In this document: positions 16,845 through 45,901 of the stretch, one piece after another
How positions within the stretch are numbered: position 1 is the stretch's first letter
How the letters are laid out: each line of letters opens with the position of its first letter
Sequence record: NC_073065.1
DNA: 45,901 nt
Direction: 5' to 3' (one strand)
DNA from: Escherichia phage vB_EcoS_Zar3M
The notes under the pieces: generated by a model
The model's database searches: none
What the model was told of the DNA's origin: nothing
Seen by the model: only the letters and a program-made list of their open reading frames with translations
Position numbers and translations under genes: made by a program

Positions 16845-16846
16845 TG

Positions 16847-17160
16847 AAGNGGGACGTCTCCCTTTTTCCCGCCCTNCAAAACTNCATACCTNCTCAATTC
16901 CNCTGCATAAACNCAAAACGGGNCAGGNGGGNCNNCCCNCTTTNTCCCNCCCCNCAAATGCGCATACCTATGCAGTTTTAATGCATAAAGTAAGCGGGAC
17001 AGAAAGCGGGACAGAAAANNGGGGGGAAAAAGNGGGANAGCACCCCGTCCCCGCCAGTGCTGCCGCGGTTTTCAGCCGATCGGGACAGGCGGGACAACCC
17101 CCAGTNTTTCANACTAGACGGGGGTCAACGGCCCCCCTCGTNTGAGACTGAANAAGGTTT
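16847..17160. repeat. iteron-rich non-coding element, copy A (GCGGGACA octamers plus conserved stem-loop)
   Basis: At least 5 direct GCGGGACA-type boxes (16994, 17006, 17032 masked, 17080 variant, 17089), inverted CGTCCCCGC, stem-loop AGACGGGGG...CCCCCCTCGT flanked by CAGTCT/AGACTG; about 35 bp nearly identical to 45620-45655. Confidence 0.6.
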
Positions 17161-17218
17161 GTTTTAAAATCGCTGATACAATATCCATCGGCAACTGCAT
17201 AAAAAAGGGGACTGCATA

Positions 17219-19861
17219 ATGGCAGATCAAGCGGCAGGCATCACGCTGAAGGCTGATGTTGCACAAATCAGAACGGCAAATACTGTGCTGGACTCCTTCG
17301 CACAGAAATCCGAGAACACAGAAAACAAGGTTAAGAAATTAAACGACACCCTCGGCAAATCCAAAAAGGTGACGAGTGACGCCGCGGGCGGAATGGAGAA
17401 GCTCGCGACTGAATCGCAGCGCGCAGCCGATGGNANGACAAAACAGGNGCGNCTTGCCAACAGGTTAGGCATGTCGACCAAAAACCTGGGCTTTGCCTCG
17501 CGTAACGCCGCATTCCAGTTACAGGATATCGCAGTTACGCTTGAGATGGGGATGCCTGTTCACCGCGTCATGCTTCAGCAGTTACCGCAGCTAACTGGGG
17601 CGTTCGGCGGACTGGGTAACACGCTGCGTTTTGTTGCGGGCTTCCTCGGCCCAGTAGGGGTCGGCCTTGCCGCCGTAACGGCAACGTTAGGCGTGGGCGT
17701 GGCAATTACGTCCCGCGCGGAGAACCAGATCGCCNCGCTTAACAAGACGCTGGCACTTTCCGGTAACATTTCCGGCCTGACGGCAAACCAGATCCTGGTG
17801 CTATCTGAGAACGCCGNGCGCNNGGGNGGGNNGTTCCGCAANANGNGNGACACAANCCNGGCGNNGGNGGNGGNGGGTGTGAAAGNGGGNGGNGACTTCG
17901 GCGCACTGGNGAAAGTGGTGAATGACTTTGCGAAGGTGTCCAGCCAGCCGATCGAGGATGTGGTCGCGGCGGTGGCGAAGCTGTCAACCGACCCGGTAGG
18001 CGGCTTGCGAGCATTGGCTGATAAGTATCACGTCGTAAACGAAGCGCAGATCCAGCAGGTGCAGTCGCTTGTGGATATGGGTCGCGAGACAGACGCGGTT
18101 GCGTTGGCTAACAAAACCGCCGCAGCGTCGTTTACGACTATGACCAACGATATTAAGTCCAACATGGGTACGCTTGAGCGTTCGATGAACGTAGTCACAT
18201 CGGCAGCGAAATCCATGTGGGATGCCATCCTGGATGTTGGACGCGCGCAGTCCTCGAATGAGTCCGAGATGAAAGCGCGTGAGTCATTGCAGCGACTGAC
18301 CACGGCTTACTATGCCGAGATGAAAGCGGTAAACGCTGCCGGTGGGGTGATGACCGAAGCGCAGAAAGCGCGTATTAACATGCTTTACAGCGAACTGGTC
18401 GCCCAGGAGAAGGTGGTGGCGTCGCTCACCCTGCGCAACCGTGCCGAGCGGGACAACNCCCGCCCCNGGGAANAAGNNNNAAAGGNGAANGAANAGGCAA
18501 ACCNCACCGCCCGCNNCCNCGCCGCGTTTGNGAAGGAGTACGCAACCAACGCGAAGCGGCGAGCCGACGAGATCGCCCGCCTCAATTTGCTGAATAAGCG
18601 CGGTGTTATTAACGAGAAAGAGCTTGCCGAGGCGGTGAAGCAGGTAAACGAGCGTTACAAAGACCCCGCCCCGAAGAAGGCCGCCGCTGTTCGAGTCGAT
18701 GCCGGGCTGAAAATGCTGGAAGTCGCGCGAAGCGAATTAGCCCAGCTTCGTGAGTCTGGAAAGCAGATCGAAGCCAACTCTTCGACGCAGACCCGCACGC
18801 AACGCGCGCAAGCGGCCCTTAACAAGCTGATTGCCGACAACGAGCAGTTAATCGCTGCGAGCAAAGAAAGGGCGCTGACGGCAGCAGAGAAGCAGCAAAT
18901 GGTCGGGTTCGGAGGCGTTAAATCTGTACGCGAGCAGATCGTCGAAGAAGCCAAATTGCTGGACGCGAAAGAGAAGCAGGTCAAGGCGCACGCGCAGATC
19001 GACGCCTTCGTTAAGAACCAGAACGCCGAGCTAAAAGCCACCGCGGCGGGCTATGCGCTTTCCACTCGCGAAGCGGCTAACCTGCGCGAAGAATTGCAGC
19101 TAATTGACCGCCTTAAGCGGGTGGGCGCTAGTGATACCGATATTGATCTGGCGGTGTCTAAGCTGCGCGAAGTGCAGGAAGCACAGACCGGTGCTAACGC
19201 CTCGCTATGGGATGGATTAAGCCGCGGGCTTAAGGATAGCGTTGATGAAATGGGTAACGGCTATACGCAGATGGCGTCACTAACAAAATTCACGTTCGGC
19301 GCTATGCAGGACACGATGAACGAGTTTTTCGAGACTGGCAAGCTGAACGCAAAGGATATGGTTAAGTCCATCCTGAGCGAATTAATCAAGCTGGCTACAT
19401 CGCAGGCGTTCAAGTCCATCGTTAGCGCTTTNGGNGGNGNNGGNGGAAAAAANGGNTTNTTNGGNGNTNTNTTNNCCNGCCNGACTAANAANGNGGNNGG
19501 NGGNGNGNNCGNNGGGGGNAATCTCGCGGCCTNTTNGGGGNAAGTGGTAAGCCNNCCTNCCTTTTTNNGTTNCGGNGTCCNGGNGTTCGCTAAGGGTGCT
19601 GGATTGATGGGGGAGGCTGGACCCGAGGCCATCATGCCGCTGAAGCGCGGGCCAGACGGTAAACTGGGAGTTGCCGCTGCCGGTGGGGTCGGTGGGATGA
19701 TTGTAACGACCAACGTTAATATGGGTACCGGTAAGACGGATACCAGTGTGAGCGGACCGGACCCACGCACCGCGCAGGCGTTCGGAAAGCAAATCACCGA
19801 GTCGGTCAAGGCCGAGATTGTGAAGGCGACGAAACCGGGTGGTGTACTTTACAAACNATGA
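17219..19861 (+). CDS. tape measure protein
   Basis: 880-aa helical Ala/Gln/Lys-rich protein with Gly-rich hydrophobic C-terminal region; downstream of G/GT. Confidence 0.85.
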   Translation: MADQAAGITLKADVAQIRTANTVLDSFAQKSENTENKVKKLNDTLGKSKKVTSDAAGGMEKLATESQRAADXXTKQXXLANRLGMSTKNLGFASRNAAFQLQDIAVTLEMGMPVHRVMLQQLPQLTGAFGGLGNTLRFVAGFLGPVGVGLAAVTATLGVGVAITSRAENQIAXLNKTLALSGNISGLTANQILVLSENAXRXXGXFRXXXDTXXAXXXXGVKXXXDFGALXKVVNDFAKVSSQPIEDVVAAVAKLSTDPVGGLRALADKYHVVNEAQIQQVQSLVDMGRETDAVALANKTAAASFTTMTNDIKSNMGTLERSMNVVTSAAKSMWDAILDVGRAQSSNESEMKARESLQRLTTAYYAEMKAVNAAGGVMTEAQKARINMLYSELVAQEKVVASLTLRNRAERDNXRPXEXXXKXXEXANXTARXXAAFXKEYATNAKRRADEIARLNLLNKRGVINEKELAEAVKQVNERYKDPAPKKAAAVRVDAGLKMLEVARSELAQLRESGKQIEANSSTQTRTQRAQAALNKLIADNEQLIAASKERALTAAEKQQMVGFGGVKSVREQIVEEAKLLDAKEKQVKAHAQIDAFVKNQNAELKATAAGYALSTREAANLREELQLIDRLKRVGASDTDIDLAVSKLREVQEAQTGANASLWDGLSRGLKDSVDEMGNGYTQMASLTKFTFGAMQDTMNEFFETGKLNAKDMVKSILSELIKLATSQAFKSIVSAXXXXXGKXXXXXXXXXXXTXXXXXXXXXGXNLAAXXGXVVSXPXFXXXXVXXFAKGAGLMGEAGPEAIMPLKRGPDGKLGVAAAGGVGGMIVTTNVNMGTGKTDTSVSGPDPRTAQAFGKQITESVKAEIVKATKPGGVLYKX

Positions 19862-26690: not shown

Positions 26691-26969
26691 TTACCCCCAA
26701 TACGTATATATAAATCTTGATTCGCCAGCGTTAAAGCCGCTCCAGGAGACAGTGTTGTCGCTTACGGATATTGATGGCGCACCCCAAGATGTGCCGTTCC
26801 AGGTATGCGTACCAACGTAACCTGCCTTTAAACTTTTCCCCGGCGGACGGTTGTGATACGTCTTGCTCCCGGATGGTTGTGTGAATTTGTCAAGAAAAAA
26901 AACCGGCGTTAACAGGCCTGTGACGTCACGACCATGTTCGTCATAAATCGCGTACCCATAGTTACTCAT
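26691..26969 (-). CDS. hypothetical protein (92 aa)
   Basis: ATG at 26969 preceded by GGAG; 8-nt ATGAGTAA overlap with lipoprotein gene stop. Confidence 0.4.
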   Translation of the reverse strand: MSNYGYAIYDEHGRDVTGLLTPVFFLDKFTQPSGSKTYHNRPPGKSLKAGYVGTHTWNGTSWGAPSISVSDNTVSWSGFNAGESRFIYTYWG

Positions 26970-27231
26970 TTCTACACTCCACAATTTCAAATTTATCTTC
27001 GCTTTGCCATCTGTGAACGAAAGTTACAAATTTCTGTGATGGGGCTACTCGGTATTGTTTTTCGCCAAATCGGTTTTCACGCACCGCGTTTAGTTTAACA
27101 GGGTAGCTATCGTTTACGGGGAATGTTTTAACCGCATATTGGCCTACGCAATCGATAGCCTTGTAGTTGCCGTCTGGCGATGCGGAGCAACCGGACAAAA
27201 GAACCGCACAAATCATAATTAAAGTTTTCAT
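26962..27231 (-). CDS. small outer-membrane lipoprotein (Cor/Llp-like superinfection exclusion candidate)
   Basis: ATG at 27231 with AGGAG RBS; signal peptide plus lipobox MKTLIMICAVLLSGCSASP; divergent from tail fibre gene. Confidence 0.55.
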   Translation of the reverse strand: MKTLIMICAVLLSGCSASPDGNYKAIDCVGQYAVKTFPVNDSYPVKLNAVRENRFGEKQYRVAPSQKFVTFVHRWQSEDKFEIVECRNE

Positions 27232-27311
27232 GGTATCATCTCCTATATTTGGTTGAGTTTTAGTATTACACCGCTCGATCAAGAATGCAACCAATTTACG
27301 AGGATTTAGCT

Positions 27312-29135
27312 ATGGCAGCGGGCACACTATCCGTAACGAATAACAGCAAGGCGGTTGTAGGGGTCGGGACAACGTTTACCGCGTTTAACGCTGGCGACTT
27401 CTTAACGCTGGTGGTAGGGCAAGTCCCCTACACCGTAGCAATCGCGTCCGTTGAAAGCGAAACCGCGCTTACGCTGGTGTTACCGTTCGACGGCCCAACG
27501 GCAACCGGCCTTGCGTGGGATGGCGTTAAGCGCGATACCATGTCACTGGCGACGATGGGCGTAACCGTACAGGCACAGAAAGCATTGCGCTTGATGCTTG
27601 CAGATGAAAACAACTGGCGTGCAATCTTCGGCGACGCTGAAGAAATAACCGTGACGTTGCCTAACGGGCAGGTAATGCAGGGTATGTCATGGGGATATCT
27701 GTCGCAGTTGATGAAACAGGTCGACCCAGTTGAGATGCGCAACCTGCAACAGCAAGCCGCCGCATCTGAAGCAGCCGCGCAGGGATACCGGAACGAGGCC
27801 GAAGGCTTCAAGACCGAGACGGCGGGCATTCGCGACGCCACCAATCAGATTAAGGCGGATACGCAGGCGATCCACGACGCCACTAATACCATCAAGACGC
27901 AGACTGACCTGATTAAGACTGATACTCAGGCCATCAAGGACCAGACGAACCAGATCAAGACTGACACCGGCGTTATTCGTGACGAAGCCAATATGGCGAA
28001 GACTGACGCGCAGGCCGCCAGCGCTGCCGCGCAGGGATTTCGCGATCAGGCCGAAGAATGGGCGCAAAGCGTAAACCCCGACAATCTGCTAACCAAATCC
28101 GGCAACCTCGCCGGGCTTGCGGACAAAAGTGCGTCGTGGGCTAACCTTATGCCGTCAGGACCGCTTCGCGTAGGTGCGGACCCCGTAAACACCCTGGACG
28201 CTGCGACTAAAGGGTGGGTGTGGCGCGGTCTTGATGACGTGGGGCTTTGGGGTTTACGCAATAACTACGCTTCAGAACCCGCAGGGGGTGCAGAAGTATA
28301 CGGCGGGCGCTTTGACTCCTCTGTGAACGTCGCAGGGACCGAAAAATACAGAATGTCGATACAGCTTCAGGGGCGTAATAACGTAGACGCCTGGACACGT
28401 TTGGCGACCGCTGACGTCCGCAGCATGGCGAACGCGGCGACGTGGGACTTTAAATATGATGGCAAGATTATTTTCAATAAGGGATTGAGTCCATCGTCCA
28501 CCTCGGCGTCGCCAGGTAATACCTACGTAACCCTTGCGAATACATGGATGGACAGCCAATACTCGGGACACGTCGGCTTTGTTGGAGGCGGGGCGGGGAC
28601 GAGTGGTGGCGGGTGGCGTAACTTTATTTCGTTCGGCGCGCTGATCCACCCGCCCACCGGTAACTCGCACCCCCATGCTATGATTGCGCAGGTCTTTGAT
28701 TATGATTTGGCGTCCGGGACACAGCCTAACGGCGATAGCGTTCGAAACACTACATTCAACCCCGAAGCATACGATATCACCTTCGGCAACAACTTAGGGA
28801 CTGTTAACTATATTTTCGCAAAGTCCCCGGTATCCGATAGGGCGCTGAAGCATGATATCGCCCGGATCGATACTCAAGTTGCGTACGATAACGTTATGAC
28901 TATGGAGTACTCGTCCTTTGTTTATAACTACGACAAAAAAGAGACGGTTAGACGTGGTTTTATCGCGCAGCAGTTGGAAGAGATCGACCCGCAGTATGTC
29001 CGCAAGTACACCAACGCAACCGGTAAAGAGTTTCTGGCATTAGATGAAAACGTCCTACTACTTGACCTAATCGCGACTGTTCAGCATTTGGCGGCGAAGG
29101 TTGAGGCGTTAGAAAGTAAGTTAGCGGAGAAATGA
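27312..29135 (+). CDS. tail fibre protein with C-terminal intramolecular chaperone (peptidase S74-like) domain
   Basis: ATG at 27312 with AGGA RBS; coiled-coil heptad-like repeats (IKADTQAIHDATNTIKTQTDLIKTDTQAIKDQTNQIKTDTGVIRDEANMAKTDAQ); C-terminus DRALKHDIARIDTQVAYDNVMTMEYSSFVYNY...GFIAQQLEEIDPQYV typical of auto-cleaving chaperone domains. Confidence 0.75.
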   Translation: MAAGTLSVTNNSKAVVGVGTTFTAFNAGDFLTLVVGQVPYTVAIASVESETALTLVLPFDGPTATGLAWDGVKRDTMSLATMGVTVQAQKALRLMLADENNWRAIFGDAEEITVTLPNGQVMQGMSWGYLSQLMKQVDPVEMRNLQQQAAASEAAAQGYRNEAEGFKTETAGIRDATNQIKADTQAIHDATNTIKTQTDLIKTDTQAIKDQTNQIKTDTGVIRDEANMAKTDAQAASAAAQGFRDQAEEWAQSVNPDNLLTKSGNLAGLADKSASWANLMPSGPLRVGADPVNTLDAATKGWVWRGLDDVGLWGLRNNYASEPAGGAEVYGGRFDSSVNVAGTEKYRMSIQLQGRNNVDAWTRLATADVRSMANAATWDFKYDGKIIFNKGLSPSSTSASPGNTYVTLANTWMDSQYSGHVGFVGGGAGTSGGGWRNFISFGALIHPPTGNSHPHAMIAQVFDYDLASGTQPNGDSVRNTTFNPEAYDITFGNNLGTVNYIFAKSPVSDRALKHDIARIDTQVAYDNVMTMEYSSFVYNYDKKETVRRGFIAQQLEEIDPQYVRKYTNATGKEFLALDENVLLLDLIATVQHLAAKVEALESKLAEK

Positions 29136-31903: not shown

Positions 31904-31990
31904 CGTGTCGTCTCCAGGTATTAAAAAAGGGCGTCCAAACCGGACACCCTCAATATAACGCAACCAATATGATTATGCAACCAATTTACG
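31904..31990 (-). promoter_or_regulatory. promoter-like region with two ATTGGTTGC motifs
   Basis: On - strand: CGTAAATTGGTTGCATAATCATATTGGTTGCGTTATATT then RBS; shares 17/18 nt (ATGCAACCAATTTACGA) with 27285-27302. Confidence 0.4.
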
Positions 31991-32303
31991 AATAAAAGTT
32001 CGGGTCGCGTGCGACGTCTACCAGGTAAAGGTTACTTATGCGGTTGCCGTAGTGCCCTGGAGTGCGCTGGCGGCACACAACGGCGAAGCCGGGAGGGATT
32101 GTATTGCCCGTCTCAATAATCCACGCGACGCGTGCGCCAGACAGCGTCTTTCCGTTGCATTCGATACGTGTTCCGCCATCGGCAGTATTGATGTTGCCAA
32201 TCTTGCAGCCGGTGGACTTCAGACGGATGACGCCGGTTTTGCTGTCGTAGGTGAATAGCTGGTTAGTCATTGCGACCGAAAAGTCGATGGCTTCGAATGT
32301 CAT
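31986..32303 (-). CDS. HNH endonuclease-like protein (intact copy)
   Basis: Pattern LFTYDSKTG...GKTLSGARVAWIIETG..IPPG...NRISNLYLV resembles HNH_3-type phage endonucleases, though the canonical DH dyad is not obvious; ATGA overlap with methyltransferase. Confidence 0.45.
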   Translation of the reverse strand: MTFEAIDFSVAMTNQLFTYDSKTGVIRLKSTGCKIGNINTADGGTRIECNGKTLSGARVAWIIETGNTIPPGFAVVCRQRTPGHYGNRISNLYLVDVARDPNFYS

Positions 32304-32995
32304 TTTAAATTTTCCTCGTTAACCGCTATCGCGAAGCCGCGCGGAGTGAGCGACCGGATTAATTTTGTGCGGGCTGATTTGCCTCCGAGGCGACTATACT
32401 GCTTCGAGTACCCTTTTTCAACGAAAACAGGTCTCTTCTCTGGCATACGGAAGCCGTTGCCGGTCCATAAGCAGGTCAGCTTCGGATATGAATCGCGAGC
32501 GTTGATGTATTCCGGGAAGAGCGGGTGTACGTCATCCTCCGGCAGATATCCCCCATACTCCCACGGGTCGAATGAGTGATCCGGCTTGCGCCACTGGGTG
32601 GAAAGCACACTGCGCGGATTCTCAATCATATATGGCACTTCAAAGAAGTCACCTAAGTAAGCGGCAATCTTCGCGGNGCGCACCGCCTTAAGCTGAAAGG
32701 CAGGGTCTTTAGCACGCTTGCGAGGGAAAGCGGGTGCACCGCTCACTGCCAGATCCGTACACGGCGGGAATGCATAAATGATATCCGGCGTGCCGAAATC
32801 ACCATTCATCGCGCGGTCCACGAAGTCCAGATCGATAAACTCATTACGATATCGGATACCGCGCCCATAAATCCGGTAGTCCAGGTACGAGCCGTGATCG
32901 GCTTCGGAGTAGTTGAAGCAATAACACTTATGCCCCATCTCGGCAGCACGCTCAATCATCAAGCCGCTGCCGTCGAATAATGACCAGATAATCAT
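32300..32995 (-). CDS. DNA (cytosine-5)-methyltransferase-like protein, copy 1
   Basis: Motif I-like SLFDGSG, PC motif AFPPCTDLAVSG, ENV-like MIENP; 231 aa (short for a C5-MTase). Confidence 0.6.
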   Translation of the reverse strand: MIIWSLFDGSGLMIERAAEMGHKCYCFNYSEADHGSYLDYRIYGRGIRYRNEFIDLDFVDRAMNGDFGTPDIIYAFPPCTDLAVSGAPAFPRKRAKDPAFQLKAVRXAKIAAYLGDFFEVPYMIENPRSVLSTQWRKPDHSFDPWEYGGYLPEDDVHPLFPEYINARDSYPKLTCLWTGNGFRMPEKRPVFVEKGYSKQYSRLGGKSARTKLIRSLTPRGFAIAVNEENLK

Positions 32996-33264
32996 ATGCG
33001 CGCCTTTTTAGCTTTCATGTATTCCATCAAGTCGTCCTGGATATCTCGCTTACTGTCTCGACGCTCTGCGACCAGTTCATCCAGTGTGCCGCGCGCCTGG
33101 ATAATGTAGACGAATACCGGACGAGGGTGTCCGGCTTGCATCTGGCGAACTGGCCCGATACGTTCAACTGCCCGTCTCAATAATCCACGCGACGCGTGCG
33201 CCAGACAGCGTCTTTCCGTTGCATTCGATACGTGTTCCGCCATCGGCAGTATTGATGTTGCCAA
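32992..33264 (-). pseudogene. helicase 3' fragment (duplication-derived ORF)
   Basis: C-terminal 57 aa identical to helicase C-terminus (ERIGPVRQMQAGHPRPVFVYIIQARG...KAKKARI); N-terminal part is out-of-frame junction sequence. Confidence 0.5.
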
Positions 33265-33367
33265 TCTTGCAGCCGGTGGACTTCAGACGGATGACGCCGG
33301 TTTTGCTGTCGTAGGTGAATAGCTGGTTAGTCATTGCGACCGAAAAGTCGATGGCTTCGAATGTCAT
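33164..33367 (-). pseudogene. truncated HNH endonuclease-like gene (duplication-derived)
   Basis: First 66 aa identical to 31986..32303, truncated at the duplication junction and lacking the NRISNL region. Confidence 0.5.
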
Positions 33368-34059
33368 TTTAAATTTTCCTCGTTAACCGCTATCGCGAAG
33401 CCGCGCGGAGTGAGCGACCGGATTAATTTTGTGCGGGCTGATTTGCCTCCGAGGCGACTATACTGCTTCGAGTACCCTTTTTCAACGAAAACAGGTCTCT
33501 TCTCTGGCATACGGAAGCCGTTGCCGGTCCATAAGCAGGTCAGCTTCGGATATGAATCGCGAGCGTTGATGTATTCCGGGAAGAGCGGGTGTACGTCATC
33601 CTCCGGCAGATATCCCCCATACTCCCACGGGTCGAATGAGTGATCCGGCTTGCGCCACTGGGTGGAAAGCACACTGCGCGGATTCTCAATCATATATGGC
33701 ACTTCAAAGAAGTCACCTAAGTAAGCGGCAATCTTCGCGGNGCGCACCGCCTTAAGCTGAAAGGCAGGGTCTTTAGCACGCTTGCGAGGGAAAGCGGGTG
33801 CACCGCTCACTGCCAGATCCGTACACGGCGGGAATGCATAAATGATATCCGGCGTGCCGAAATCACCATTCATCGCGCGGTCCACGAAGTCCAGATCGAT
33901 AAACTCATTACGATATCGGATACCGCGCCCATAAATCCGGTAGTCCAGGTACGAGCCGTGATCGGCTTCGGAGTAGTTGAAGCAATAACACTTATGCCCC
34001 ATCTCGGCAGCACGCTCAATCATCAAGCCGCTGCCGTCGAATAATGACCAGATAATCAT
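33364..34059 (-). CDS. DNA (cytosine-5)-methyltransferase-like protein, copy 2
   Basis: Identical to 32300..32995; ATGA overlap with full-length helicase stop. Confidence 0.6.
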   Translation of the reverse strand: MIIWSLFDGSGLMIERAAEMGHKCYCFNYSEADHGSYLDYRIYGRGIRYRNEFIDLDFVDRAMNGDFGTPDIIYAFPPCTDLAVSGAPAFPRKRAKDPAFQLKAVRXAKIAAYLGDFFEVPYMIENPRSVLSTQWRKPDHSFDPWEYGGYLPEDDVHPLFPEYINARDSYPKLTCLWTGNGFRMPEKRPVFVEKGYSKQYSRLGGKSARTKLIRSLTPRGFAIAVNEENLK

Positions 34060-41947: not shown

Positions 41948-42463
41948 TTAATCTTCCAGTTCGAAATAGGTTTCGACGATTTCTTTTAGCTCTTTGTGGA
42001 AGTCTTCGACGTCGTCATCTTCCAGCTTGGCGATTGATTTGATCTCGAACGATTCCAGCAGGTCGTCGAATTCGTCGTTCGCATCGTCGTCATCACCACC
42101 GGCGATAATCGCGGCATACTGTTTGATTTCGTCGCGCATCTCCGCCAGCGGATCGGCATCTTTCTTACCTTTGCCTTTCGCCGGTGCTTTCTTAGACTTA
42201 GCCGGTTTTTCGTCTTCGGCATCGTCGTCGTCATCTTCTACGACTTCTTTTTTAGCCTTACCTTTCGCCGGTGCTTTTTTAGCTTTAGCCGGTTTTTCGT
42301 CTTCGGCGTCATCGTCGTCATCTTCGACAACTTCTTTTTTGGCCTTAGACGGCTTCTTGTCTTCCTGTTTACCAACGGCAGCGCCAACGGTTTCATAATG
42401 CTTTGCAATGGTTTCCAGTGCTACTACGCCGCGAGTGATCAGGTTTACGATTTGCTCAAACAT
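41948..42463 (-). CDS. highly charged tandem-repeat protein (171 aa)
   Basis: ATG at 42463 with GGAGATATACATG; contains a 2x tandem repeat KKEVVEDDDDDAEDEKPAK(A/S)KKAPAKGK (DNA direct repeat about 60 bp at 42200-42330) plus acidic C-terminal region. Confidence 0.5.
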   Translation of the reverse strand: MFEQIVNLITRGVVALETIAKHYETVGAAVGKQEDKKPSKAKKEVVEDDDDDAEDEKPAKAKKAPAKGKAKKEVVEDDDDDAEDEKPAKSKKAPAKGKGKKDADPLAEMRDEIKQYAAIIAGGDDDDANDEFDDLLESFEIKSIAKLEDDDVEDFHKELKEIVETYFELED

Positions 42464-42699
42464 GGTATATCTCCGATTGGTTAAGTTTAGGTGTCGGCAG
42501 TTAACTTCGTCGGTGGCCTTAACATATTGCCAGGTTACGCGTTCTCCCGTTCGGGTAGTGGACCTGGTTATATAATCACGGTTGGGAATCCTGACACTTC
42601 GATCCGGCCCCTGCGTTGCCCCTCTCCAGTTTGCGTCCTGCATCCTGTCGACGGAGTGAATGATAGATTGGTTGGAGGAGGGGTGTCAACAACTAATTT

Positions 42700-42734
42700 C
42701 AAAAAAAAAAGCGCCGAGGCAAAATGCGACGGCG
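42700..42734 (-). terminator. intrinsic terminator (- strand) inside the divergent control region
   Basis: On - strand GCGCCG-N12-CGGCGC followed by T10 (plus-strand A10 at 42701-42710); no - strand gene lies upstream. Confidence 0.5.
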
Positions 42735-42754
42735 CTAACCAATAAGAGACAATG

Positions 42755-42795
42755 AGACGGGAATTATTATTACACGCGTGCGCGACCGTTTCAAT
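42755..42795 (-). promoter_or_regulatory. sigma70-like promoter (- strand) firing into the terminator at 42700-42734
   Basis: On - strand TTGAAA-N17-AATAAT; predicted start about 50-60 nt upstream of the T10 tract. Confidence 0.35.
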
Positions 42796-42805
42796 ATCCA
42801 AAGGA

Positions 42806-42834
42806 TTTGACACCGTGCAGTTTTGGGTGTAGTT
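42806..42834 (+). promoter_or_regulatory. sigma70-like promoter for regulator/primase operon
   Basis: Perfect -35 TTGACA (42806-42811), 17-nt spacer, weak -10 TAGTTT; about 30 nt upstream of ATG at 42867. Confidence 0.4.
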
Positions 42835-42866
42835 TCGTTGGTCATTAACCAACTGAGGGCTGAATT

Positions 42867-43196
42867 ATGAATATCAAAGAAGCAATTGAAGTGTTATCTA
42901 ATGCAATCCGCGGCGAAGCGGGTAAATCCTGGTATTACACAAATGCGGTGGATACTCTGTTATTTGAAGTCGTCCGATTACGCAGTGCTGAGAAGGAGTT
43001 ACGCGCGAAGCTGGAACTACTCAATGGTACGGCAGCCAGCAAGCTGCAAAAGCANAATGAAGAAATGGAAGAATACAAAAAGCAGGTTATCCGTTTGCGC
43101 GACGAAGGGAAATCATGGGCGATGATTGCAGAGCTAACCGGAATTAATCAGAGCACCGTGCGATCCTGGGTACGCAATAATAAAACCTCTAAGTAA
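42867..43196 (+). CDS. helix-turn-helix DNA-binding regulator (109 aa)
   Basis: C-terminal HTH-like GKSWAMIAELTGINQSTVRSWVRNN; N-terminal coiled-coil-like region; first gene of + operon. Confidence 0.5.
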   Translation: MNIKEAIEVLSNAIRGEAGKSWYYTNAVDTLLFEVVRLRSAEKELRAKLELLNGTAASKLQKXNEEMEEYKKQVIRLRDEGKSWAMIAELTGINQSTVRSWVRNNKTSK

Positions 43197-43206
43197 GGNA
43201 ACGGCA

Positions 43207-45471
43207 ATGNGCTTAATTAAATTCGCAGTAANACGACCCGCTAAAAAAGGNGAAAAAGCCAGGGCGGAAAANTTCCAGATGACTACCGATGAGTTTTTCG
43301 AATTTATCAACGATGCGAAAGAAATCTCCTCGGTGCATATCAACAAGACGGAAGATAAAGCGGAGTATGCGCGCCGCAAGCGTAAGGCCGATGGCATTGT
43401 GGCTTATACCAGTGATGGGCTGCGCCGCAAGACCAGTGCCGTGGATCGCTCGATCCTGTTCTTCGATATGAACCGTACCGACACCCGCACCTTGCGCCGC
43501 TGCCGTAAGGCGTTCATCGACGCGGGTCTTGAACACGTATTTCACACCACCACCGGCGACCGCCACCCGCTGAAGGGCGGCACGCGTTGCGCCCGTTTCC
43601 TGGTGCTAACGGATAAGCCCGTACCGGCGGAAGACCTGGGCCGCGTACAGTATGCACTATTACACCAACTCGGCCTGTCAGATGTGGACTTCGATGATTG
43701 CACGAAAGACACAAACCGCCTTATGTACCTGCCTCACCNGCAATCGGTTGTTAAGTGTCACTACGGCAAACGTGCCCGCGTCCGTCGTCTGATTCGCCTG
43801 GCGGATAAGCNGGGNGNGGAAAAAGAGGAAGTACGCCGCGAATTAACCCAGGGCGATGACGGCGTGGNGGACGGCATTNTGGNTTGGTGNTTCCAGGNAG
43901 GATTCGAACCGCTGTCGTCCGGTCGTGGTTATGAAGTGCCGTGCCCGAACGAACACCTGCACAGTGGTGAAGGGTCCACCGCTATCATGGTCAAGGATGG
44001 CGAGATCCGTTTCAAGTGTATGCACACTGGCAACGAGTGTTGCTCGGAACTGAACAGACACCAGCACCTGGCGCTACGTCTTATCGGGATACCGGACCAC
44101 CTGAACGTCGAACCACACAACATGTCTCGTAAGCAAATCGCCGCCATTCTCCCCGGACTGGACGACGAGGAAGTGGAATCGTGCTATGCGCATATAGTTG
44201 ATGCGGTCGGTGACGGCGACGAGTACGGCGTATGTACCGACGCGGACCTGGATAACGAACCGGTCGCACTGTTCAGTAAGCACGACCCGATCATCGAGGG
44301 GTTGATTAACTTCAAATCGACCTGGTATATGGCTGGCGAATCGAACATCGGTAAATCGTTCTACGTGCTGGGCCAAATGGGTGCGGTTGCCNCGGGGATT
44401 CCGTTCGGNGGTGCGAAGGTCGTCCAGTCTCATTGCTTCTATTTCGACGCGGAAGGTGGTGAAGCCTCCAACCAGCGTAAGGAAGCATTGCAGATCAAAT
44501 ATGAGCACGACCTGGACAAGCTGCACATTATCGATCTGCAATCACGCGGCTGGGATATCACCAGCAAATCCGGCTTGCGTGAAGTTATCAGCTTCATCAA
44601 CCGCACCGCTAACGGCGAACCGGTTGGCCTGGTGGCCTTCGACTCCCTCAACCAGACTGTTGCGTTGCGGTCCGCCGATGCTAAACCGTTCGACGAGAAC
44701 AACGCCAGCGATATGGGTGAAGTGGTCAAAGCGCTGAAGGCCATTGCGGAAAAGACCGGCGGCAGTGCTGGCGTCATCCACCACCCGGCGAAGGGCGCAA
44801 ACGGCAGCAGATCCCCCCGCGGGTCCGGCGCGCTGCATGGTGCTGTTGATTCTGCGTTCTTCCTTGAGCAACCGGACGACAACCAGCCGGGCCAGTTGAA
44901 CCTGTATCACGAAAAGGCACGTAACGGCATCAAGCAAGCGCCGCGCGGCTTCGTCCTGCTCAAGTGCAAGGTTAAGGNGGATCTCCGCAAGNCCGAAGCG
45001 TTCGAAGCCCNCCAGTCCNCCNGCACCGGGCCGGACTTTGGCGACGTCGTTGCCGGTTGGGACGTCAAGCCAATTGCCTCCACGCCACGCGACGAGACTC
45101 TTTACCTCGTNCCGGTCGCCCTGGCNCCGTTCNCTNTTGAGNNGGNGAAGGCCGNGGGNAAANNAGCCGTTAANNAANAAAANNCCNCNGGACCNCGCAA
45201 NNAGAAANANAAAGTGCTTTATGCGGCACTGGAAAAACTGATGGAAGATAACCCGGACCATACCGGATTCAGTAAATCGGCAATTGTCCGCCAGGCTGGG
45301 CTTGCGAAAGGGGGCACATCGACGAAGGCAATAGACGATATGGTGGAGCGCGGCGTGCTAGGTTTTTATACAGATCCGCACACTGGGGCCATCTATGGGT
45401 CGTCGAATATCGTCATCAAAACAAATATACCCATCACGCTTTCGGCGACCGATGATGATTTAAAAGATTAA
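43207..45471 (+). CDS. primase-helicase (primase-like N-terminal domain, zinc-binding region, P-loop RecA/DnaB-like ATPase)
   Basis: Cys/His cluster CPNEHLH...CMHTGNEC; Walker A GESNIGKS and Walker B-like LVAFDS; N-terminal domain has phage/plasmid primase-like features; several n-masked patches. Confidence 0.7.
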   Translation: MXLIKFAVXRPAKKXEKARAEXFQMTTDEFFEFINDAKEISSVHINKTEDKAEYARRKRKADGIVAYTSDGLRRKTSAVDRSILFFDMNRTDTRTLRRCRKAFIDAGLEHVFHTTTGDRHPLKGGTRCARFLVLTDKPVPAEDLGRVQYALLHQLGLSDVDFDDCTKDTNRLMYLPHXQSVVKCHYGKRARVRRLIRLADKXXXEKEEVRRELTQGDDGVXDGIXXWXFQXGFEPLSSGRGYEVPCPNEHLHSGEGSTAIMVKDGEIRFKCMHTGNECCSELNRHQHLALRLIGIPDHLNVEPHNMSRKQIAAILPGLDDEEVESCYAHIVDAVGDGDEYGVCTDADLDNEPVALFSKHDPIIEGLINFKSTWYMAGESNIGKSFYVLGQMGAVAXGIPFXGAKVVQSHCFYFDAEGGEASNQRKEALQIKYEHDLDKLHIIDLQSRGWDITSKSGLREVISFINRTANGEPVGLVAFDSLNQTVALRSADAKPFDENNASDMGEVVKALKAIAEKTGGSAGVIHHPAKGANGSRSPRGSGALHGAVDSAFFLEQPDDNQPGQLNLYHEKARNGIKQAPRGFVLLKCKVKXDLRKXEAFEAXQSXXTGPDFGDVVAGWDVKPIASTPRDETLYLXPVALXPFXXEXXKAXXKXAVXXXXXXGXRXXKXKVLYAALEKLMEDNPDHTGFSKSAIVRQAGLAKGGTSTKAIDDMVERGVLGFYTDPHTGAIYGSSNIVIKTNIPITLSATDDDLKD

Positions 45472-45546
45472 TTTGTGCGCGCATTGGTTGCCGATTTGGG
45501 AATTCCGATATGATTAAAAGATTAATTTGTGCGCGCATTGGTTGCC
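45457..45546. repeat. two ~35-bp direct repeats each containing ATTGGTTGCC
   Basis: TGATT(T)AAAAGATTAATTTGTGCGCGCATTGGTTGCC at 45457-45490 (overlapping primase stop) and 45510-45546; third ATTGGTTGCC at 45572-45581. Confidence 0.6.
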
Positions 45547-45619
45547 ATTTTTAGTGTTTTTATCTGGTCGTATTGGTTGCCGTGTAGTGTGTATATAATG
45601 AATAGTTATGCAATAAAAC

Positions 45620-45790
45620 TGCATAAAGTGAGCGGGACAGAAAGCGGGACAAACAAGGGGCGGGACAAAGCGGGACAGCGCCCCCGTCCCGCCCCGGATG
45701 GCGCGGCCTAGAGAGGAGCGGGACAGCGGGACAAAACCCCAGTCTTTCAGACTAGACGGGGGTCGATGGCCCCCCTCGTCTGAGACTGAA
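45620..45790. repeat. iteron-rich non-coding element, copy B (GCGGGACA octamers plus conserved stem-loop)
   Basis: Six direct GCGGGACA boxes (45632, 45644, 45660, 45670, 45718, 45726) and inverted CGTCCCGC (45685-45692); stem-loop CAGTCTTTCAGACTAGACGGGGGTCGATGGCCCCCCTCGTCTGAGACTG; homologous to 16980-17156. Confidence 0.65.
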
Positions 45791-45901
45791 TAAAATCCGG
45801 GGATTGCAAATTACACGGNAGCATNACGCGAAGTGCGGTCGCGGATGAACTAGGCAACCAATGCAAACCGCATTACGCTGAGTGAAAAATGCGGTTTGCA
45901 G

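Follow-up and report, generated by a model that had tools for sequence, protein, structure and literature searches.

Here, we analyze the gene-free stretch that follows the primase-helicase gene of Escherichia phage vB_EcoS_Zar3M, using the whole 45,901-nucleotide record NC_073065.1 (hereafter, the window). This stretch is a real, conserved control region. It includes a segment, termed region B, with an array of short repeats (iterons) and a long hairpin, and we put the chances at about even that region B is the replication origin of the phage. A sequence-only reading had proposed an origin here because origins often lie beside the gene of their initiator. That remains the best-supported reading, given the lineage-specific iterons found after the gene in nine further lineages, the winged helix at the C terminus of the protein, and 40–50 bp of AT-rich DNA next to the array. 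Two of the features that it had assigned to the origin, the ATTGGTTGCC triplet and a terminal hairpin, do not belong there. All of the features that it listed are nonetheless present, at or within 1–2 nt of where they had been placed, and far above chance. The anatomy and conservation of the region, the fixed position of the iterons and the winged-helix fold are direct observations, and we present these first.

The window comes from a Dhillonvirus, an HK578-like virulent siphophage of E. coli. Dhillonviruses are among the commonest E. coli siphophage isolates, and they are present in the BASEL collection and among therapy candidates. The last 602 bases of the window have matches in 157 phage records, with few exceptions from Escherichia, Shigella or Sodalis phages of the Dhillonvirus group. 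The window is a permuted circle: in relatives, position 45901 joins directly to 1–101, as had been suspected, and the first gene then starts at 102. One caveat is that the window contains 577 N's, clustered at 16850–17040 (copy A, described below), at 44978–45215 (the part of the primase-helicase gene that encodes the linker before the winged helix), at 45819 and 45825, and elsewhere. Because several of these fall inside features of interest, the fine anatomy was taken from vB_EcoS_PTXU06, which is collinear with the window and has the same coordinates (within the first 3 kb, ~7% of the non-N positions mismatch), and from other clean relatives. The features of region B and its flanks are as follows.

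43207..45471, + strand: primase-helicase gene, 754 aa, with a putative AEP-like N-terminal primase region, a putative Zn-ribbon, an AAA_25 helicase core and a C-terminal winged helix
45217..45468, + strand: C-terminal winged-helix domain of the primase-helicase, candidate iteron reader
45460–45497 and 45514–45551, + strand: direct repeats of 38 nt, 95% identical, plus a degenerate third copy at 45549–45586
45580..45633, + strand: AT-rich segment, with TATAAT at 45594–45599 and the box pair GAATAGTTATGCA (45600–45612) and TGCATAAAGTGAGC (45620–45633)
45632, 45644, 45660, 45670, 45718 and 45726, + strand: iteron array of six direct GCGGGACA, plus one inverted GTCCCGC at 45686–45692
45740..45788, + strand: hairpin 2, GC-rich, ~20 bp, with two 5′ bulges and a C/C mismatch; stems invariant within the genus, loop variable
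45814..45823, + strand: CACGGNAGCA, a copy of the CGGCARC heptamer, ~30 nt 3′ of hairpin 2
45853–45862, − strand: inverted copy of ATTGGTTGCC, kept in all Dhillonvirus B regions
45862–45874 and 45888–45900, + strand: perfect 13-bp inverted repeat with a 13-nt loop
41..101, + strand: putative sigma-70 promoter, read from sequence, and leader of the first rightward gene (start 102)

The gene-free stretch had been estimated at about 530 bp. Positions 45472–45901 plus 1–101 make up 531 bp and hold a single mechanical open reading frame (45529–45711, 60 aa, GTG start). Several relatives carry a ‘hypothetical protein’ annotation here, a candidate that we reject, since relatives do not keep the frame and copies of the element differ by single-nucleotide indels. 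The longest open frame is broken in copy B of the window, of LM40P1 and of L002, and in copy A of L010 and L015. Several frames are open in this DNA owing to its base composition.

The iteron array lies where the sequence-only reading had placed it. The six direct copies of GCGGGACA between 45632 and 45733 belong to a total of 12 in the whole window, where 1.8 are expected. The array begins ~160 bp past the stop codon of the primase-helicase gene, and six direct and one inverted CGGGACA fall within 270 bp of that codon. Clusters of CGGGACA are found only in region B and in a second region, A; all other matches are scattered singles. Just 5′ of the iterons, the 40-bp GC content drops to 23–30% over 40–50 bp, compared to 32.5% for the first percentile of the genome, while the array itself reaches 82%. 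The two boxes of the AT-rich segment, 20–21 bp apart, also form an inverted repeat, TTATGCA-N7-TGCATAA, and the pair GAATAGTTATGCA is kept in Dhillonvirus and in lineages L036, L037, SP031 and L043. The TATAAT-like box is present as described, at 45594–45599, but is not part of any full sigma-70 promoter in a consensus scan and has no counterpart in L036, L037 or LM40P1; it is not conserved outside the core Dhillonviruses.

A second copy of the iterons and hairpin lies 17 kb away on the circle, among the tail genes:

16845..17218, + strand: region A, second iteron-and-hairpin copy, with hairpin 2A at 17102–17150 and CGGCAAC at 17189–17195

The relation between the two copies had been recognized from the sequence and is borne out, in that copy A (~16965–17160) aligns with copy B at 80% identity. 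Region A has extra palindromic iterons upstream, and copies of CTGCATAA occur within 17195–17219. The heptamers TGCATAA/TTATGCA are concentrated in regions A and B, which together hold 7 of the 13 in the PTXU06 genome. When 30 distinct A and B copies from 13 genomes are aligned, a module of ~190 bp (45600–45790 in region B) with four parts emerges. First come the related AT-rich boxes GAATAGTTATGCA and TGCATAAAGTAAGC, at their 20–21 bp distance; second, four CGGGACA iterons followed by the inverted copy; third, a spacer specific to A- or B-type modules and two further iterons; and fourth, the bulged hairpin of ~20 bp, whose stems never vary even though the loop does.

The module is not peculiar to this phage. 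A near-full-length match is found in 157 of 157 Dhillonvirus-group records, and every full-length genome listed has at least two. The inverted iteron and a direct one adjoin in divergent Dhillonviruses to give CGGGACGTCCCG, a palindrome too tight to fold as an RNA hairpin and of a form that suits a dimeric DNA-binding protein. A structure termed hairpin 1 (45657–66 paired with 45686–95) is simply iteron 3 paired with the inverted iteron. It shows many uncompensated mismatches across the 30 copies and is not a maintained structure. Concerted evolution of A and B is weak: copies from the same genome differ on average by 4.9 and 10.0, versus 6.2 and 11.1 between genomes. In some of the 11 genomes compared, rare variants are common to the A and B copies, such as AAC-TCCC before hairpin 2 in L011 and L015, which suggests occasional gene conversion. 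The GenBank record of Sodalis phage SO-1 annotates a ‘region A’ and a ‘region B’ as mutually similar repeat regions, so the bare observation is not new. We found no paper discussing these regions in the literature searched, and the cross-lineage iteron evidence that follows appears to be new.

Nine further lineages encode primase-helicase homologues that are 43–72% identical to that of the window. In each of these, a gene-free gap of 290–900 bp directly follows the stop codon, and each gap begins with 3 to ~13 copies of a 6–9 bp repeat, present in both orientations in most lineages. The comparison with related phages that the sequence-only reading called for shows the region conserved throughout the Dhillonvirus group and its layout kept beyond it. 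The repeats themselves differ:

L036: CGGGACA
L037: GTGGCA
Edwardsiella phage eiAU-183: CGCCCCG
Salmonella phage FSL SP-031 (SP031): GGGGAGA
L038: GGGGATC
L043: AGGGATA
L042: TGTGCGGAA
L040: TTGCGAGT
L041: TTGCGAn

A long hairpin is found at this place in six of the seven other lineages that were folded, and wherever there is such a hairpin, a copy of CGGCARC lies 3′ of it, ~20–75 nt away. In eiAU-183 (L035 + L032; record positions 26870–27640 and 42930–43017 plus 1–222), the hairpin retains the core GACGGGGG..CCCCTCGTC within a different, still complementary outer stem, and it occurs only in the counterpart of region A. The counterpart of region B in this phage spans ~900 bp and includes two inverted copies of a block (CGCCCCG iterons plus GGGGCACTTATTGATTTATAAGG) ~200 bp apart. 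Like Dhillonvirus, eiAU-183 has a second module before the tape-measure gene. The single module of SP031 follows the primase-helicase gene, and its tail genes have none ahead of them. Across lineages, the module stays at the 3′ end of the primase-helicase gene while the genes downstream differ. Orientation is not fixed: the iterons of eiAU-183 are flipped relative to the genes, as are its copies of an 8-mer, TTGGTTGC, that is related to the triplet and is discussed below. In L036, copies of the 8-mer are flipped as well and sit at the position of the direct repeats. A repeat that is held in place by one gene, changes between lineages and is indifferent to orientation is best understood as a double-stranded DNA site co-evolving with a specific binding protein. 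Free orientation, tight palindromes such as CGGGACGTCCCG and the unmaintained pairing of hairpin 1 likewise point to double-stranded DNA as what is bound.

The likeliest binding partner is encoded by the adjacent gene. The only Pfam match in the primase-helicase is AAA_25 (residues 357–531, E = 2e-19), the RecA-type family of the RSF1010 RepA helicase, and a profile of the family gives a weak match to RSF1010 RepA, 1g8y. No PDB match was found by sequence. PHROGs labels the protein ‘replicative helicase-primase’, and its N terminus matches primase families there; the AEP-like motifs and Zn-ribbon assigned to this part are putative, having been read by eye from the translation. The last 84 aa fold as a winged helix. 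This is the fastest-evolving part of the protein, with 20–58% identity between lineages compared to 54–82% for the helicase core, and its clusters of similarity are those of the iterons: L040 goes with L041, and SP031, L043 and L038 go together. For L040, the match between winged helix and iteron runs against the phylogeny of the core. Its helicase core is nearest to that of L042 (78%), whereas its winged helix is nearest to that of L041 (58% versus 44%), the lineage with a related TTGCGA-type iteron.

A small protein of 109 aa, gp62, is encoded directly upstream of the primase-helicase gene (42867–43196, + strand). It has a C-terminal helix-turn-helix (HTH; Pfam HTH_23 / Sigma70_r4_2) and is labelled ‘transposase’ in several records. 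We considered this protein as the iteron reader and ruled it out: its HTH is nearly identical in L036 and L037 and so cannot explain why their iterons differ.

We infer binding partners, DNA melting and initiation from these observations as follows. The primase-helicase would bind the CGGGACA iterons past its own stop codon through its C-terminal winged helix and oligomerise on the six direct and one inverted copies. The neighbouring AT-rich box region (45580–45630) would then melt, the RepA-like helicase would load itself, and the fused primase would begin synthesis. Hairpin 2 and the nearby CGGCAGC may serve as a structural or priming signal. Region A, before the tape-measure gene, may be a duplicated second origin or a cis-acting replication enhancer; it has no extreme AT-rich stretch, which makes B the apparent primary site. 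We would assign the flanking TTGGTTGC sites, like the promoter at 41–73, to the transcription programme rather than to the origin proper.

Similar designs are known. In the experimentally characterised system of Staphylococcus aureus pathogenicity islands (SaPIs), Rep is a self-loading helicase that recognizes iterons of five or six nucleotides through its C-terminal winged helix, and 6–12 of these iterons lie immediately downstream of rep, in both orientations, around an AT-rich tract; iteron specificity differs between elements, and in SaPI5 a primase is fused to Rep (PMC9371898). SaPI Rep/PriRep is the closest documented design. The phage likewise has a helicase with a C-terminal winged helix and element-specific iterons directly 3′ of the helicase gene, and its protein may be said to work like a SaPI Rep, not to be one. 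SaPI Rep is a superfamily-3 AAA+ protein, whereas the core of the phage protein is of the RecA-type AAA_25 kind, which sets it outside the SaPI/P4 helicase family. Other differences are that the phage iterons are 7–8 nt long, that the AT-rich tract flanks the array in Dhillonvirus (in L043 it divides the array), and that the phage has a long hairpin and a second genomic copy. The spacer between iteron groups is GC-rich in Dhillonvirus and AT-rich in L043, and region B has only one inverted iteron, whereas in SaPIs iterons face each other on both sides of the AT-rich tract. Iteron binding by the phage protein is a prediction.

Other systems share individual traits. In the alpha protein of satellite phage P4, a single polypeptide serves as primase and helicase and binds the origin through a winged-helix domain at its C terminus. 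Its helicase is again of superfamily 3, and P4 has short octamer iterons in two cis-acting regions, ori and crr, ~4.5 kb apart. The phage resembles P4 in this fusion and in having short iterons in two separate genome regions. It differs in that its protein has no sequence similarity to alpha and that its regions A and B are 17 kb apart. In RSF1010 and other IncQ plasmids, oriV is served by three proteins (RepA, RepB′ and RepC) and has 20-bp iterons, and the ssiA and ssiB hairpins are entry sites for the primase. The AAA_25 helicase family, iterons beside GC-rich and AT-rich tracts, and conserved hairpins are shared with the phage, in which, however, the functions appear to be fused and the iterons are 7–8 bp. 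By analogy, and as pure inference, hairpin 2 with CGGCAGC could play an ssi-like role in primase entry. An extension of this idea, in which such a site guides the fused AEP-type primase, CGGCARC, which all related genera share, is the lagging-strand recognition sequence of an as yet uncharacterised primase-helicase family, and region A is a second firing site in the tail operon, we regard as quite doubtful. Finally, Bacillus phage SPP1 has two copies of its initiator target, oriL and oriR, one at the replication genes and one far off among late genes, an arrangement like that of regions B and A here. Its initiator, G38P, is a protein of its own and brings in a DnaB-type helicase by way of a loader; the phage protein studied here has no sequence relationship to it.

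Several observations weigh against an origin in region B. The AT-rich stretch of Dhillonvirus is not central to the array but lies 5′ of it, and region A has no comparably AT-rich stretch. A second copy of the module inside a late operon is unusual. The L037 iteron differs from that of L036 and PTXU06, yet the winged helix of L037 is no more diverged overall; in its helix 2, FSKSAI(V/L)(R/K)(Q/K) becomes FSRRAILNA. The C terminus of the eiAU-183 protein fails to align with the winged helix, although this phage has iterons. In the more distant relatives Jerseyvirus SE2, Kagunavirus K1G and Snoke, whose aligned segments are 28–34% identical, no gap follows the gene. A plasmid database gave no match to the module, and the literature searched yielded no functional data for these phages and no mapped replication origin or initiation mechanism for Dhillonviruses. 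GC skew turns at ~42–43 kb and ~29 kb, exactly where gene orientation turns; because skew follows gene orientation, it gives no independent support. The divergent early promoter region at 42463–42867 was considered as an alternative origin and rejected, as it contains no iterons.

It is also possible that the region serves transcriptional control. The iterons and TTGGTTGC would then be operators or activator sites, for example for the small HTH protein, and would mediate a switch in expression between the early right and the long rightward (lysis, head, tail) operons; region A would act likewise on the tape-measure and tail genes. The triplet bears directly on this point. The three ATTGGTTGCC motifs are present, one in each of the three repeats between 45460 and 45586 (at 45483, 45537 and 45572), but they are not specific to the origin. 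They belong to a genome-wide, promoter-associated family, whose 8-mer TTGGTTGC has 18 copies in the window versus 1.8 expected (~20 per genome), mostly intergenic and often paired:

41–48, 72–79, 3332, 11242/11256, 27287, 30286, 31960/31977, 35977, 39646, 45484/45538/45573 and 45854: TTGGTTGC sites

These sites overlap the −35, the spacer or the −10 of sigma-70-like promoters, such as TTGCAT-17-TATATT (the first rightward gene; gp44) and TTGCAA-18-TATAGT (gp40), and are probably part of the transcription programme. The 8-mer is shared by eiAU-183, which has 9 exact sites in its region B counterpart (12 with TGGTTGC variants), and the variants GTTGGCTG, GTTGGCAGC and GTTGGCCGC bracket the module in other lineages. 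Moreover, each module is followed by a conserved promoter. After region B, this is TTGGTTGCAT, likely a sigma-70 promoter at 41–73, with −35 TTGCAT (44–49), an 18-nt spacer (17 nt in relatives) and −10 TATTTT (68–73) overlapping the second TTGGTTGC site (72–79); the 41–101 block is highly conserved in all relatives. After region A, right behind hairpin 2A, it is the conserved extended −10 TGATACAAT (17174–17182), ~40 nt before the start codon of the tape-measure gene (17219), which suggests an internal promoter for the tail genes. In addition, an HTH gene is always found ahead of the primase-helicase gene. The HTH of gp62 hardly varies among Dhillonvirus, L036 and L037, all of which use TTGGTTGC; in other lineages, an HTH_3-type protein takes its place. 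No protein common only to the lineages that use TTGGTTGC was identified as its candidate reader. Unlike TTGGTTGC, however, the iterons are confined to regions A and B and occur at no other promoter, and they differ between L036 and L037 despite the near-identical HTH. The module keeps its place directly 3′ of the primase-helicase gene while the downstream genes change, and in SP031 it is absent before the tail genes. On this evidence, we consider transcriptional control by the iterons unlikely, and return to an origin as the preferred reading.

A third explanation is that the region acts as cis-acting RNA, hairpin 2 with or without the iteron region being an RNase III-type processing site, a 3′-stabilising hairpin or an antitermination signal of the put/nut kind. 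The elements lie at the start and in the middle of a 29-kb rightward transcription unit with many predicted terminators, and both copies are on the sense strand of co-directional operons. The earlier description of hairpin 2 as a conserved GC stem-loop was correct; its ~20 bp with asymmetric bulges resemble the RNase III sites of T7, which favors an RNA. So do the invariant stem and variable loop, together with the exchange of the outer stem in eiAU-183 for a different complementary pair, and the fact that a 201-nt region folds better than shuffled sequence (z = −3). Against this, both strands of hairpin 2 fold equally well, and covariation within the genus is uninformative, since the stems are invariant in all 30 copies. 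The pairing of hairpin 1 is lost without compensation, the orientation of iterons and motifs flips between lineages, and the eiAU-183 region B does without hairpin 2. Rfam gave no match at the gathering threshold in the whole window and, up to E = 10, only chance-level matches to snoRNA and miRNA families. We find an RNA element distinctly improbable.

An intrinsic (Rho-independent) terminator can be rejected. The sequence is AAUAAAAUCC after hairpin 2 in region B and GGAUGGCG after hairpin 1; neither hairpin is followed by a U-tract, and a scan reports no plus-strand terminator at either. Hairpin 1 is nevertheless annotated as a terminator in the record of one relative.

Lastly, the array could be a site for packaging or recombination, bound by the terminase small subunit (pac or cosB-like) or by a site-specific recombinase; arrays of short repeats do occur in pac and cosB sites, and the records of the window and of PTXU06 both begin right after region B. 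This we regard as very improbable, since GenBank start positions vary among relatives, the module tracks the primase-helicase gene and not the terminase genes 5 kb away, packaging from two like-oriented sites at a distance of 17 kb would be sub-genomic, and neither region A nor region B has anything similar to ATCTTAAGGG, the 10-nt 5′ cos ends predicted for a Dhillonvirus relative (PMC10673088).

If region B is indeed an origin, the phage would have a self-loading, iteron-specific initiator in which a helicase of the RecA type, similar to RepA, is joined to a primase and a winged helix. Such a design is documented so far for the superfamily-3 helicases of satellites (SaPI, P4). The matched pairs of initiator and iteron, with at least eight repeat types, would then offer a natural system in which to study the evolution of origin specificity, and could supply orthogonal phage replicons.

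Other features of the region are more restricted in their distribution. The direct repeats, put at 35 bp by the sequence-only reading, are in fact 38 nt long and have a degenerate third copy. The first of them extends over the 3′ end of the primase-helicase gene, covering its last codons and the stop codon, and a short palindrome lies at 45494–45511 within this segment. SO-1 has one repeat fewer, which marks the repeats as a small lineage-specific tandem duplication. The terminal inverted repeat, reported as 12 bp, exists as a perfect 13-bp repeat and is not conserved: its 5′ arm differs in 15 of 17 aligned relatives, and the hairpin is found only in the window and in phage CEC_Kaz_2018.

CGGCARC, in extended form ~AACGGCA[AG]C, is abundant well beyond the two regions, each of which has one copy 3′ of hairpin 2. 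In the clean collinear genome L030, there are 99 sites on both strands, compared to 22.6 ± 4.7 in shuffled sequences. No other 7-mer of this genome is as frequent as CGGCAGC and CGGCAAC, and the median distance between sites is 439 bp. The sites (e.g., 167, 1341, 2398 ... 45816) occur in several reading frames, sense and antisense, at a density 3.3 times that of a 50-kb sample of E. coli K-12. The motif is similarly abundant in SO-1, LM40P1, eiAU-183 and SP031, and less so in Snoke (1.4 per kb). Copies of TTGGTTGC that end in GCCG contain the reverse complement of CGGCAAC. CGGCARC may be a recognition sequence for the primase or some other signal at the DNA level.

Finally, an apparent tandem duplication of ~1.06 kb lies on the minus strand at ~31986–34059. 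It comprises two open reading frames of 231 aa (32300–32995 and 33364–34059), each beside a small HNH-like open reading frame, and motif positions recur in it at an offset of 1064 bp (32456/33520, 32941/34005 and 32966/34030).

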